Below are positions 23,955-28,832 of a DNA stretch of 32,938 nt, one piece after another (within the stretch, counting starts at the first letter, position 1; the number at the start of each line of letters is the position of its first letter). A program made the position numbers and the translations under genes. This DNA is from a virus, in UHGV virus genome UHGV-2167056. One strand, written 5' to 3'. The notes beneath the pieces are model-generated. The model did no database searches, was not told where the DNA came from, and was given only the letters and a program-made list of their open reading frames with translations.

Positions 23955-24024
23955 ACCCGCCTCCGGTCATCATTACACAGGGCAAGTTTAAAATAAAAAT
24001 CCCGCGCTGTGGCGGGATTTGGGG

Positions 24025-24601: not shown

Positions 24602-25012
24602 ATGAAAATAGATTACGATGAAGTATTAAGTATTCTCACAACTTTTCAGGATGCTGAAACACCTTTCCTTACACTACAGGATCTGGGCATGGCTGAGGCA
24701 GAAGGAGAGGAAAAGGATAAAAAAGTTTTTCATCTTATGCTTCTCGCTGATAATGGCTCAATTGTTAATGGTGATATGCGGTCAGAAACACCAAAATATA
24801 TTGGTTTCTTTTTTCATTCTCTGGGCGTTGGTTTCAGAAACACGCCCATTATGCTTACTCAGCAGGGGCATGATTTAGCTAACGCCCTGAGAAAAAAACC
24901 AATCCTTGAAAGAATCAAAAAGGAGTTTACAGACGCGCCATTTGATCTAATCAAAGAAGTTACCAAATCAATGTTAACCAGGTTCGTCAAAGAACGTATT
25001 GGGATTGACTAA
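24602..25012 (+). CDS. Opposite-strand accessory gene, DUF2513-like small protein
   Basis: 136-aa ORF on the plus strand in an AT-rich stretch. LTQQGHDLANALR and FHLMLLADNGSI resemble the DUF2513 pattern as I recall it. Its 3' end overlaps the 3' end of a minus-strand ORF. Confidence 0.5.
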   Translation: MKIDYDEVLSILTTFQDAETPFLTLQDLGMAEAEGEEKDKKVFHLMLLADNGSIVNGDMRSETPKYIGFFFHSLGVGFRNTPIMLTQQGHDLANALRKKPILERIKKEFTDAPFDLIKEVTKSMLTRFVKERIGID

Positions 25013-25282
25013 ACAACTTAATTCAGCCAGTAATCGCAGGGCGGCGACAGCCGCCTGCTTGTCACTTCTTTTAGCTATTTCCGCAAGGGTATGCACAATC
25101 CATAACGGACTTAACGCTACGGCTGAATCCAGAATCATGTCATCCATAATAATTTCTGGCATATCCCGCTTGTCACATTCTTTATCCATAAAAGAAACGA
25201 ATTTTTCAGCATCTTCCGGTTTCATCCCTCCGGCGATAAGGATTTTGCGATATTCATAAGACGATCTTAATTCAATACTCAT
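24974..25282 (-). CDS. Hypothetical protein (AT-rich accessory gene)
   Basis: 102-aa ORF, AT-rich codon usage unlike the phage core. Confidence 0.4.
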   Translation of the reverse strand: MSIELRSSYEYRKILIAGGMKPEDAEKFVSFMDKECDKRDMPEIIMDDMILDSAVALSPLWIVHTLAEIAKRSDKQAAVAALRLLAELSCLVNPNTFFDEPG

Positions 25283-25297
25283 TATTCACCTGCCTGC

Positions 25298-25690
25298 TTA
25301 ATCTGTTTCCAGTGCTTTGCTACGAGCTATAGCCTCACATTCAAAAAATACCGACTCCGGCACGCGCCCTTTTAATTCACGAACAAGGAAGTCATTAACG
25401 CGTTCATGACGTCTTATATTTCTTTCCTTTTCCTCCTGGCGCAATACAGCAAGGCGGTATTCAACAGCCCGGCGTTGTTTCTGAAAGACAGCCAGTGCTT
25501 TTCTGGCAGCATTACGCCATGCATCATCGCCACATGGTGCGTATTCAAGCTGAAATTTAATCTCTTCAATAGTTTCTTTGATTTTTGCCAGCAAGCTAAG
25601 ACAGTCGCTTATTGTCTCCAGCTTTTCATTATCAATATAACTTCTCACGCATTCACCTCCCGTAATTCCGGTAAAGCCGAAATATGACAC
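25298..25690 (-). CDS. Hypothetical protein (charged, coiled-coil-like)
   Basis: 130-aa ORF; start uncertain (overlaps the upstream gene by 46 nt). Confidence 0.4.
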   Translation of the reverse strand: MSYFGFTGITGGECVRSYIDNEKLETISDCLSLLAKIKETIEEIKFQLEYAPCGDDAWRNAARKALAVFQKQRRAVEYRLAVLRQEEKERNIRRHERVNDFLVRELKGRVPESVFFECEAIARSKALETD

Positions 25691-25974
25691 CAGTGCGTCA
25701 CCTGTCCGTCTTCATCTTCAAGGCAGGCTCCGGTTTCTTCATCAACAAAAAAGCCTTCATACCCCATATGGCCGATGCGCAGCTCCTGACGGTGACCATA
25801 CTGAACAATCAGCACGACAGCCTCCATATCAGGTGGGAAAGCATCATTCAGTGAATGCCAGGGATAACCGCGTAAATCCCCGAAATAAACACCGGTCAGC
25901 GTTCCGCCACAGAGCGGCATTCCGGCGGCACACACAAGAGGTTCATCTGATTCAACAAATAAGGTCGTTATCAT
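25645..25974 (-). CDS. Hypothetical protein, DUF551-like C-terminus
   Basis: 109-aa ORF whose C-terminal VTHWCHISALPE resembles the THWMPLP signature of DUF551 proteins found in prophage early regions. Confidence 0.4.
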   Translation of the reverse strand: MITTLFVESDEPLVCAAGMPLCGGTLTGVYFGDLRGYPWHSLNDAFPPDMEAVVLIVQYGHRQELRIGHMGYEGFFVDEETGACLEDEDGQVTHWCHISALPELREVNA

Positions 25975-26522
25975 GGCGTTAACTCCCGTAATACAGCGTC
26001 CTCGGCAGTCCGGCGACGGTAATAAACTGCGTGAGCAGAATGTTCAGATATTCCAAACTTTTCGCCAATTTCCCGGAATGACAGACGGCGTGGGTAATCG
26101 GAATCACGCAGCGCACGTATAAGACGTACATCATCATCAGATATGCGCGTGCCGGGGCGTAACTCTCCGCACTTTGTTAATCCAGCACCAATCATTCCTG
26201 CCCGACATCTGACAGAATCTTTATTACGTCCGAGATATTCTCCCATTTGCTGGCAGGTCATTGTTCTGGCATTGTTTCGAATAAACTTATCTTCATCAGG
26301 TGTAAATCTTGGGTGTTTATATTTCAGTAACTCCGGGTATGAACTGCGCAATACACCAGTCCGGTTATATACAGCCCAGACAGTTCTTTTTATTCTGGCA
26401 GCAATATCCTTAACCGGGGTGGATGAATAAAGCGCAATCAGCAGCGCATCTTCTTCAGGTGTCCACGGACGGACATGAGCGGGGGCGCGACCTTTTCGCC
26501 CCATGGGTTGTAAAATCATCAT
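25971..26522 (-). CDS. Putative DNA-binding protein with three Myb/SANT-like helix-turn-helix repeats
   Basis: 183 aa with three repeats of the same pattern: RPWTPEEDALLIAL...IAARIKRTVWAV, then RFTPDEDKFIRNN...MGEYLGRNKDSVRCR, then ISDDDVRLIRAL...REIGEKFGISEHSAHAVY. Confidence 0.5.
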   Translation of the reverse strand: MMILQPMGRKGRAPAHVRPWTPEEDALLIALYSSTPVKDIAARIKRTVWAVYNRTGVLRSSYPELLKYKHPRFTPDEDKFIRNNARTMTCQQMGEYLGRNKDSVRCRAGMIGAGLTKCGELRPGTRISDDDVRLIRALRDSDYPRRLSFREIGEKFGISEHSAHAVYYRRRTAEDAVLRELTP

Positions 26523-26525
26523 ACA

Positions 26526-27041
26526 TCACCCCCTGACTCGCTTTTCAGCAGCATAAAACTCATCAGACAGTATTTCGGTCATTTTCTGTTTTGCGGGTTT
26601 TACGCCGCACTGAAGGTAAATCACATCGTCAACGCAGAACCACTTCACAGGGCCAAACAGGATTGCCGAGAAATCAATACCCAGCCAGAACAACAGCGCA
26701 TCGGTTCTGGCATACGTGACGGGCGAATATTCACGCCACAGACTGTTCAGTTCATCAGAGGCAACACGCAGGGTTTTAGGGATACGTGATGTGCGCGGTG
26801 TGCAGCTCCAGCCATTCGACGCAGTCGGTTTTCGCCATAAGTCGCGATGAAAAGGATATTTGTCCTCCGTAAAACGCAGTCCCTTAAAGCAAAATCCACT
26901 GATACCGGATACAAATACCGACCGGCACGCAACATTCAGCACGGCCTCAAGGCGTTTTGCCTCATCCTTAACTTTCTGGCAGTCCTGCTGGTATTTTTGC
27001 CACGCAGCCAGCGCGGAAGGGTTTGATGTTTTAAAGAACAT
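26526..27041 (-). CDS. Hypothetical protein
   Basis: 171-aa ORF; its start overlaps the upstream gene's stop. Confidence 0.45.
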   Translation of the reverse strand: MFFKTSNPSALAAWQKYQQDCQKVKDEAKRLEAVLNVACRSVFVSGISGFCFKGLRFTEDKYPFHRDLWRKPTASNGWSCTPRTSRIPKTLRVASDELNSLWREYSPVTYARTDALLFWLGIDFSAILFGPVKWFCVDDVIYLQCGVKPAKQKMTEILSDEFYAAEKRVRG

Positions 27042-27574
27042 TACGCCACCTCCGCAGATATCCCGGCAGGCGCTGCTGTCCGGTCAACAATCAGGTAGCG
27101 CAGAACATGTTCAGTGATATTCCAGCCGCTTAAACCGCAGATAATGACGCCCAGGCGTATGTCGATATACGCCATCACAAACTGGGGCACGCCTTCTTTC
27201 ATGGCCTGCTCATCAACTTCAGCCACCACATAAACGGTTTCACAGGTCAGAACGCCCTGAGCAAATTCCCACGCCATCGACGGAATATCATGCCCCTCAA
27301 TCCATGGCAGGGATTTTCTGAAGCCGCACCACTGAACATCATCAGCCGCAGATTCCTGGCTGCATTTGCGACGAACCGGCTGCACCGGGCGGGGGCGCGG
27401 AATATCATAAAAACCGTTACATTCCGTCAGCACGCCTGCATCAACCGCATCACGCAGAAAATAAACCATGGAGGATGGCGGCATATTCATTTTTTCAGCC
27501 AGTACACCGCAGGTCAGGCGGCCATAAATACACAGCCAGTTTTTAACCCCTTCAAGCACTTTTGCATCAATCAT
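27041..27574 (-). CDS. Hypothetical protein with a possible N-terminal winged-helix region
   Basis: 177-aa ORF, first gene after an AT-rich 145-nt intergenic gap downstream of gam. Confidence 0.45.
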   Translation of the reverse strand: MIDAKVLEGVKNWLCIYGRLTCGVLAEKMNMPPSSMVYFLRDAVDAGVLTECNGFYDIPRPRPVQPVRRKCSQESAADDVQWCGFRKSLPWIEGHDIPSMAWEFAQGVLTCETVYVVAEVDEQAMKEGVPQFVMAYIDIRLGVIICGLSGWNITEHVLRYLIVDRTAAPAGISAEVA

Positions 27575-27719
27575 GATTTATTTCCCCACCACATTATTAA
27601 TGACGATATAAACGTATTTCATATTTCTTAACCCTTATTTTCTGTTTTCAGGCGCAAGCAGTCCCCTGACGCGAGCGCCATAATTAAAATGAAGTGATAT
27701 TTAATTGATTAATGCGGTG

Positions 27720-28250
27720 TTATTTATTCAGTCCGGCGTCCTGTTCAAAAGGCTCGACATAAAAACTTTCAGCGCCTTTATTCACCTTGATACCGGCAAT
27801 GCCTTTCACAGCATCCGGCTCCGCCAGGACGGCTTCCTTGTTCACTTCCTCTTTCGTGCGGATGAAACGCTCAAGCCCCATACGGCGCAGCATTTCAATC
27901 ACACCTTCCACATCACGGCTGACGCTGCATGATGGCGTTCCCAGCCGCCATGACACCGTTCCGGTGGTCAGATTGGCTGTTTTGGTTTTGCCGCCGTTCG
28001 TCAGCTCATCACGGTTGGTTTTGCACCAGTCCTGAATCCCTTTAAAAAGCACTTTGATTTGCTTTTTAAGATTTTCAATCTGCGGCGTATAACGGGCGGT
28101 GATTTCTGCCACTTCGTCATTCATCGCCGTTTCCAGGCGCAGCGCCTCTCGCTGAATATCTCCCAGGGTGCGGATATCACGGCTGACTTCTTCCCGGGTC
28201 TGCGGTGCCGCCTCGGCTGCGGCCTTTAATTTTGTAACGCGTTTAGCCAT
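27720..28250 (-). CDS. gam: Host-nuclease inhibitor Gam (Mu Gam / Ku-like DNA-end binding)
   Basis: 176-aa ORF, Mu Gam-like in size and sequence character, at the expected position in the early operon. Confidence 0.85.
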   Translation of the reverse strand: MAKRVTKLKAAAEAAPQTREEVSRDIRTLGDIQREALRLETAMNDEVAEITARYTPQIENLKKQIKVLFKGIQDWCKTNRDELTNGGKTKTANLTTGTVSWRLGTPSCSVSRDVEGVIEMLRRMGLERFIRTKEEVNKEAVLAEPDAVKGIAGIKVNKGAESFYVEPFEQDAGLNK

Positions 28251-28261
28251 TTTGTTTTTCC

Positions 28262-28555
28262 TTATTGCAGTGTGCCTGATGCTTTATGCACGCGGTGGCG
28301 TTTAATGATGGCATCCGCTCCAAAAGACTGTGCAGATGCCTGAAATTCCGCTGAGAGAAACTGAATAATTGCAGGACTGTGATACTGGAGAATACTTGCA
28401 TAAACGTCACAGAGTGACGTCGGCCTGTTATCCGTATCACGTTCTGTTTTCACATCCACTCCAATCTTTTCATGCACTTCAACACAGTCATTGCCTGCCA
28501 ACTTTTCGTCATGCGAAACATGATTAAATTCAAAAATAACGCGTACTTTGCTCAT
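28262..28555 (-). CDS. Small hypothetical protein, tandem paralogue 2
   Basis: Taken from the internal ATG (MSKVRVIFEFNH...); N-terminus paralogous to the adjacent upstream gene (MSKVVRIIFEYKED...); AT-rich. Confidence 0.45.
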   Translation of the reverse strand: MSKVRVIFEFNHVSHDEKLAGNDCVEVHEKIGVDVKTERDTDNRPTSLCDVYASILQYHSPAIIQFLSAEFQASAQSFGADAIIKRHRVHKASGTLQ

Positions 28556-28559
28556 GGAA

Positions 28560-28832
28560 TTACCCCTGTTGATTAAATTCATTACCGTTAATAACCCCGG
28601 AAGCCATGCCTCTGTCTTTCATGAATGCACTGGCTTTCATTGCCACAAACTCTGCGAAGTTTCTGCTTTCTGCCAGCATAACCACCCCAAAAATCATGGC
28701 GGGTCCATTATCTTTCTTCTTTATTCCGGTTGAACGTATATCCAGACTTACCCCTCTGTGCGTGCTGCCATCAGAGTTTTTGCAGATAACATCTTCCTTG
28801 TATTCGAAAATAATGCGTACGACTTTACTCAT
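28560..28832 (-). CDS. Small hypothetical protein, tandem paralogue 1
   Basis: 90-aa ORF; N-terminus MSKVVRIIFEY; 4-nt spacing to paralogue 2. Confidence 0.45.
   Translation of the reverse strand: MSKVVRIIFEYKEDVICKNSDGSTHRGVSLDIRSTGIKKKDNGPAMIFGVVMLAESRNFAEFVAMKASAFMKDRGMASGVINGNEFNQQG

Follow-up and report, generated by a model that had tools for sequence, protein, structure and literature searches.

The closest described relatives of the locus analysed here lie in the early region of bacteriophage Mu. This phage's semi-essential early (SEE) region is variable, and only some of the phenotypes ascribed to it (kil, gam, sot, arm, cim as well as gem) have been assigned to genes (PMC4553209). 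Apart from this general description, the literature searched for Mu gp9, gp11, gp12 and gp13 and for Myb-like proteins of phages yielded no relevant data on function. In Mu, the gp11 gene lies directly after gam and is followed by those for gp12, gp13 and gp14; gp9 (Mup09, formerly E8), a 99-aa early SEE-region product with two Myb-like repeats, is encoded upstream of gam.

The window, that is, the whole 32,938-nt stretch of DNA analysed, reads as an E. coli Mu-like prophage with its genes on the minus strand. The features that frame the locus are, in gene order:

32705-30618, minus strand: MuA
30544-29603, minus strand: MuB, with several small ORFs between it and gam
27720..28250, minus strand: gam, host-nuclease inhibitor (Pfam Phage_Mu_Gam, E 5.5e-42), upstream neighbour of the gp11 orthologue
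27575..27719, minus strand: gam-gp11 spacer, 145 nt
27041..27574, minus strand: gp11 orthologue, 177 aa
26526..27041, minus strand: gp12 orthologue, 171 aa
25971..26522, minus strand: three-repeat Myb/SANT-like helix-turn-helix (HTH) protein, 183 aa
25645..25974, minus strand: next early gene, 109 aa, acidic, phrog_6925
25298..25648, minus strand: following early gene, 116 aa with the RefSeq start, phrog_6158
24537-24025, minus strand: GemA, followed by Mor, reached from the 183-aa gene via further small ORFs

A preliminary description of this DNA had singled out the 177-, 171- and 183-aa genes as a block lying right after gam in a Mu-like early operon, and both the setting and the genes are borne out. 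The minus-strand coordinates were confirmed, and a 99.7% identical stretch of E. coli TOE17 has RefSeq gene calls exactly equal to those of the window. The block is found in 232 of 5,426 complete E. coli genomes. Close homologues of all three products, together with the purifying selection acting on the third gene (see below), indicate that these are real genes and not chance ORFs. A consensus scan for promoter- and terminator-like sites that might delimit the trio gave no more hits than shuffled sequence, and no terminator-like site was found on the coding (minus) strand within 25971-27574; an internal promoter or terminator isolating the three genes was rejected on these grounds. The early promoter would drive this SEE stretch together with the genes for transposition.

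The first protein is acidic (pI 4.9) and shares 68% identity with Mu gp11 (Mup11) over its full length. It matches phrog_1949 (E 4e-105) and, across the entire profile (positions 1-78 of 78), Pfam family PF25754 (Gp11_C), where its score of 139.2 bits exceeds the cut-off of 27. Its gene occupies the same place as in Mu, directly after gam and before gp12. By alignment and gene order it is the orthologue of Mu gp11, from which it has merely diverged, with no structural difference between the two. A putative winged helix (about aa 1-57) is followed by a Pro/Arg-rich linker and by the Gp11_C domain (aa 90-167). In the AF2 model (mean pLDDT 60) the C-terminal domain is moderately confident, with block means of 75-90; the N-terminal 50 residues, modelled at low confidence (56-63), are arranged as three helices and a short strand. 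This layout, and the fact that the N-terminus yields matches to winged-helix domains only, make the winged helix that had been suggested for this region plausible, with moderate confidence. Matches of gp11 to MIF in the PDB (E about 0.4-1) were discarded as a short chance alignment.

The second protein is basic (pI 9.3). It is 54% identical to Mu gp12 (Mup12) over 169 aa, matches phrog_2314 (E 1.1e-84, covering 2-169 of 173) and is encoded at the same position after gp11; on these data it is the Mu gp12 orthologue. Its homologues all carry a precomputed match to PF26885. Downstream of gp12 the two phages part ways: gp13 and gp14 follow in Mu, whereas a gene for a Myb-like protein follows here. 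Database names for gp11 and gp12 are 'hypothetical protein' throughout. No NCBIfam family matches any of the three proteins, and PDB sequence and profile searches with all three gave nothing significant. The earlier statement that no function could be assigned stands for each of them.

The three genes had been described as joined by overlapping stop and start codons. This is correct for the first junction, TAATG, where the gp11 stop and the gp12 start overlap by 1 nt as they do in Mu, but not for the second, which reads TGA TGT ATG and places a 3-nt spacer between gp12 and the Myb gene. The sequence GGGGGTGA precedes this second junction. Both gp12 and the Myb gene have a Shine-Dalgarno sequence inside the preceding gene; that of gp12, GGAGGTG, lies 5-11 nt upstream of the start codon, within the end of gp11. 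Further downstream, the stop codon of the Myb gene overlaps the ATG of the 109-aa ORF by 4 nt (ATGA), and the latter in turn overlaps the 116-aa ORF by ATGA, the RefSeq start being used for the 116-aa ORF. With five consecutive genes so tightly spaced, a boundary drawn around three of them is arbitrary; such spacing is the norm in this operon. Where both are present, gp11 and gp12 are probably made by coupled translation, and each of them also occurs without the other.

For the third protein, Mu encodes no equivalent at the corresponding position. The protein is basic (pI 10.0) and aligns over residues 2-182 with phrog_323 (E 1.2e-52), a family annotated as 'transcriptional regulator, D5-like', the regulator label being a putative, family-level one. 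RefSeq names it "SANT/Myb-like DNA-binding domain-containing protein". The NCBI name for the 98%-identical cluster is 'SANT/Myb domain-containing protein', and that of a second allele (see below) is 'AsnC family protein'. On the protein itself Pfam scores fall short of the gathering cut-offs, with 20.4 bits against 24.4 for PF00249 (Myb_DNA-binding, repeat 1) and 17.1 against 22.9 for PF13921; homologues P0005 and P0019 carry precomputed PF00249 matches. The repeats are placed as follows:

26343..26471, minus strand: repeat 1, aa 18-60, RPWTPEEDALL...VYNRTGVLR; AF2 helices 22-31, 37-43 and 48-59
26187..26312, minus strand: repeat 2, aa 71-112, PRFTPDEDKFI...RCRAGMIG; AF2 helices 75-84, 90-97 and 101-111
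26010..26150, minus strand: repeat 3, aa 125-171, TRISDDDVRLI...AHAVYYRRR; AF2 helices 129-140, 149-156 and 160-169

Profile-profile comparison with hhalign relates repeat 1 to repeat 2 with 97.9% probability (E 4e-13) and repeat 2 to repeat 3 with 77% (E 2e-5); the relation between repeats 1 and 3 is weak. Repeat 3, the most diverged of the three, gives weak HTH_AsnC-type and HTH_10 matches. In the AF2 model, built from a 12-sequence alignment, the chain forms three separate three-helix bundles (block pLDDT roughly 84-93), each with an HTH made by helices 2 and 3, joined by low-confidence linkers of about 10-15 aa that are predicted to be flexible. A Foldseek search with the whole 183-aa chain returned nothing significant, as expected for an arrangement of beads on a string. 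The three Myb/SANT-like HTH repeats read from the sequence in the preliminary description are thus recovered by both the alignments and the model. Myb repeats are defined by three regularly spaced tryptophan or aromatic core residues. This triad is partial in repeat 1, where W20 and W49 are kept and V or I stands in the middle, and absent from repeats 2 and 3, which have F73 or I127 at the first core position and no tryptophan. Members of the AsnC/Lrp family combine an N-terminal winged HTH with a C-terminal RAM domain, an alpha-beta sandwich that binds ligand. An AsnC-family identity for the 183-aa protein was rejected, since the HTH_AsnC-type match reaches 19.2 bits against 27 and touches repeat 3 only, and the model is all-helical with no beta domain; in the absence of a RAM domain the name 'AsnC family protein' is a misnomer.

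In Mu, the homologue of the 183-aa protein is gp9. Both belong to phrog_323, and gp9 aligns with residues 66-168, that is, with repeats 2-3 (hhalign probability 97.3%, E 1.8e-11). The 183-aa protein differs from gp9 in having three repeats and conserved N- and C-terminal extensions, and in being encoded after gp12 rather than upstream of gam. A 'DNA binding protein' of Citrobacter phage Shae_phiSM (WOZ57150.1) is 36% identical over 99% coverage and has the same conserved termini, but its gene is an early-operon accessory gene of a P2-like phage (Peduoviridae), upstream of gpA and without gp11 or gp12 neighbours. The likeness to eukaryotic R2R3 Myb and SANT proteins (c-Myb 1h89, WER 6kks, CoREST SANT 2iw5) is qualified by the sub-threshold Pfam scores, the degraded tryptophan triad, the longer flexible linkers and the bacterial virus context. 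SANT-type domains may, moreover, bind proteins such as histone tails instead of DNA. With the GcrA DNA-binding domain (5yiu) and Sulfolobus Cbp1 (2lvs) the likeness is at the level of the fold only. In a profile search with the Myb family, 9,768 of 1.84 billion cluster representatives matched at E <= 0.001; proteins with 4-9 repeats are numerous among them, and in some the repeats are joined to ResIII/Helicase_C helicases. Related repeats are also present in mycobacteriophage and Vibrio phage ORFs; in cluster-J-like mycobacteriophages they are found in or beside ORFs with an HNH endonuclease or DNA methylase annotation. The architecture had been called unusual for a bacteriophage protein, a view that does not survive these findings: the protein is a phrog_323 member, Mu itself has a two-repeat homologue, and multi-repeat forms are frequent among the representatives.

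The distribution of the genes was assessed by seeding viral contigs separately with each of the three proteins and scoring them for gp9, gam, gp11, gp12, the Myb gene and their neighbours. The co-occurrence sample was made up of 69 Mu-like loci that contain gp11 and have 1.3 kb or more of flank on each side. The most frequent arrangement, gp12 with the three-repeat gene and no gp9, was found in 32 of the 69. Thirteen loci have gp9 and gp12 without a three-repeat gene, as in Mu, 19 have gp9 without gp12 or a Myb gene, four have gp12 only and one has none of the three. Overall, gp12 is missing from 20/69 loci and the Myb gene from 37/69, and gp12 occurs without the Myb gene in 17/69. In the loci without gp12, unrelated small ORFs come after gp11. 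No Mu-like locus carries more than one Myb-like ORF: gp9 is present in 32/69, the three-repeat gene in 32/69, neither in 5/69 and both together in 0/69, a count to be read with the phylogenetic clustering of the contigs in mind, most of the 32 Myb-positive loci being close E. coli relatives. The mutual exclusion may consequently reflect lineage and not functional redundancy.

Outside this sample, too, the genes are found apart. The lytic Klebsiella phage SopranoGao (Lastavirus) and a different transposable Klebsiella phage both have gp12 homologues (27-30% identity) and lack gp11. Myb homologues of 36-42% identity were found in 20 P2-like contigs without gp11 or gp12; in all 20 of these non-Mu loci, and also in Shae_phiSM, a P2 gpA-type replication gene lies 1-2.5 kb downstream of the Myb homologue. 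The idea that the three genes form one unit thus fails, as each occurs independently and only 32 of the 69 gp11 loci hold the full trio. A Myb alignment scan of species-representative genomes gave no confirmed locus; as a result, the taxonomic range (E. coli, Salmonella, Citrobacter) is drawn from viral contigs, E. coli genomes and protein names.

The Myb gene behaves as a discrete cassette. In contigs L094 and L097 the sequences on either side of the cassette are 91-92% identical, and what sets the two apart is the Myb gene, inserted precisely after the gp12 stop and ahead of the next gene's start. The boundaries of the insertion coincide with gene boundaries with ATGA overlaps, and neither repeats nor a target duplication are visible there. 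In relatives lacking the Myb gene the 109-aa ORF directly abuts gp12. E. coli harbours two Myb alleles, about 73% identical, which differ in all three putative recognition helices. When the window is compared with O157:H7-type relatives, dS of the Myb gene is 0.60-0.68, against 0.07-0.27 for its neighbours gam, gp11, gp12 and the next ORF, and its dN/dS is about 0.25. The raised dS relative to the neighbours, combined with the low dN/dS, suggests that the allele was replaced by recombination and is maintained under purifying selection. Positive selection as the source of the divergence was rejected, because dS too is raised, three- to five-fold, and dN/dS is low.

The reading that we favour, with a probability of about 0.6, is that the region is a mosaic SEE accessory stretch rather than a dedicated three-protein system, and that the Myb gene is a mobile early accessory gene for a DNA-binding protein. 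In this stretch gp11, acidic and with a probable winged helix in front of Gp11_C, and the basic gp12 constitute a conserved Mu pair, and the third gene is a separately mobile cassette. Its basic product, with three flexibly linked Myb/SANT-like three-helix HTH domains, would insert the third helix of each repeat into the major groove of DNA, by analogy with R2R3 Myb proteins, and a monomer could thereby read an extended site. Most likely, by the same analogy, it is a monomeric multi-HTH DNA-binding accessory factor. It appears to share the role of gp9 because the two never co-occur, and would fill that role here. In the cell it might act on phage or host DNA as a dispensable early regulator or architectural protein at the onset of lytic growth.

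It is quite unlikely, in our judgement, that the three proteins instead work as a single module or complex whose stoichiometric production is secured by translational coupling. The succession of a 1-nt overlap and a 3-nt gap, each with a Shine-Dalgarno sequence inside the preceding gene, would suit such a module, and so would the preservation of the gp11/gp12 overlap in Mu. Moreover, in the Mu-like loci every Myb gene at least 51% identical to that of the window comes directly after gp11-gp12. Against this stand the many loci with gp11 but not gp12, or gp12 but not the Myb gene, the gp12 homologues of Lastavirus and of another transposable phage, which have no gp11 alongside, and the Myb family members that have neither partner in P2-like phages. 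The next two genes are joined by equally tight junctions, and the Myb gene has a recombination history of its own. Some functional connection is still conceivable, given the conserved overlap and the constant place of the closer Myb genes after gp12.

The mobility of the cassette bears on two further proposals. Exchange of a dispensable accessory gene between unrelated types of temperate phage, Mu-like and P2-like, its early expression and the existence of two E. coli alleles with different putative recognition helices are what one might expect if the Myb-like protein, perhaps with gp11 and gp12, served in host takeover, anti-defence or competition between elements, for instance by silencing host defence loci, rival prophages or satellites; relatives of gp12 are likewise found here and there in the early regions of lytic phages of Klebsiella and Vibrio. 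We regard this only as a tentative possibility, improbable on the whole. Seven proteins of the region gave no PADLOC match at E <= 0.01, in a library made of defence and not anti-defence proteins, the literature offered nothing, and a dN/dS of about 0.25 carries no arms-race signature at the level of the whole gene. We consider it very improbable that the Myb-like gene has a selfish origin, being either left over from a mobile element of the endonuclease or methylase type or a DNA-binding module of such an element that now stands alone, with its presence or absence a matter of selfish mobility. The HNH endonuclease, methylase and helicase associations of related repeats and the clean insertion or deletion of the gene point towards it, but the 183-aa protein itself has no nuclease, methylase or helicase domain, in Mu-like and P2-like phages alike it is conserved over its full length and has N- and C-terminal motifs that do not vary, and it is under purifying selection. 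The insertion, furthermore, respects the ATGA gene boundaries with no repeats or target duplication visible.

The analysis sharpens the picture of the SEE region in Mu-type phages: gp11 is almost universal, gp12 is common, and a Myb-like gene takes one of two alternative positions. The sequences, the RefSeq gene calls, the Myb/SANT label and the Pfam and PHROGs families were already catalogued. What is new is comparative only: gp9 and the three-repeat gene occupy alternative slots, P2-like phages share the cassette, and E. coli has two diverged alleles. These observations put gp9 and the three-repeat protein forward as a single function in Mu genetics, where several early phenotypes await genes. 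Carried further, gp9 of Mu and the three-repeat proteins found here and in P2-like phages might represent one interchangeable early function of temperate enterobacterial phages, exerted by a monomeric multi-HTH protein on a long site, which could underlie the arm or cim phenotype of Mu or target host or rival DNA with allele-specific specificities; this extension we consider doubtful. The trio lies in an ordinary mosaic accessory region. In O157:H7-type relatives an additional gene, of 180 aa, is inserted between gam and gp11.

Conservation of the three-repeat protein, the 183-aa product of the Myb-like gene, extends to two short motifs that lie outside the repeats and are kept from Mu-like to P2-like versions. 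The N-terminal motif spans residues 2-21 (nt 26462-26519), with the invariant pattern M-x-L-x-P-M-G-x-x-G-x-x-P-A-H-V-x-x-W-T, in a stretch predicted to be disordered (pLDDT < 50). The C-terminal motif (residues 170-183, nt 25974-26015) reads R-x-T-A-x-D...P at its invariant positions. These terminal motifs could be partner-binding peptides. The profile search with the Myb-like family also returned three large proteins of 807-1115 aa (P0022, P0106 and P0158), in which an N-terminal helicase of the ResIII/DEAD/Helicase_C (SNF2-like) type is followed by 5-8 C-terminal Myb-like repeats belonging to the same family as those of the three-repeat protein.

The Myb-like gene occurs as two alleles in E. 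coli Mu-like prophages, one represented by the window (25971-26522, minus strand) and the other by loci L004 and L024-L044. The two proteins are about 73% identical, in prophages that are otherwise 92-98% identical, and the differences extend to all three putative recognition helices. RefSeq names differ by allele ("SANT/Myb-like" versus "AsnC family").

Variation is also found around gam. A second variable slot is the 145-nt spacer between gam and gp11 (window 27575-27719), where O157:H7-type relatives have an additional gene encoding a hypothetical protein of 180 aa (L004 3179-3721). Directly upstream of gam are two small genes on the minus strand (window 28262-28555 and 28560-28832), in the slot that gp9, the two-repeat homologue, occupies in Mu. 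Both products start with MSKV(V)R(V/I)IFE, and the alignment between them is weak, at 22% identity across 76 aa (E 6e-4); the pair may have originated by tandem duplication. A Salmonella-type subgroup of Mu-like contigs (L094 4332-4970 and the similar loci L112-L114, L116 and L119) has no match to gam, carries a 212-aa ORF in the gam region, and is without gp9 and the three-repeat gene. It retains gp11, gp12 and the 109-aa ORF that lies 3′ of the Myb-like gene in the window.

Within the early operon a single gene lies on the opposite strand (window 24602-25012, plus strand). It encodes a 136-aa protein with a DUF2513 domain, as judged from the RefSeq name, and its 3′ end converges on a 102-aa early ORF (24974-25282, minus strand) with a 39-nt overlap. 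Mu likewise has a single opposite-strand gene, gp15, at the corresponding position. Finally, a strong terminator-like hairpin (23997-24020, minus strand; 9-bp stem with 5 GC pairs, followed by a T-tract) lies directly 3′ of the gemA stop codon, ahead of mor. In Mu, gemA and mor overlap, leaving no gap; the intervening hairpin therefore suggests that in the window phage mor may be separated from the early transcript, or transcription attenuated at this site.
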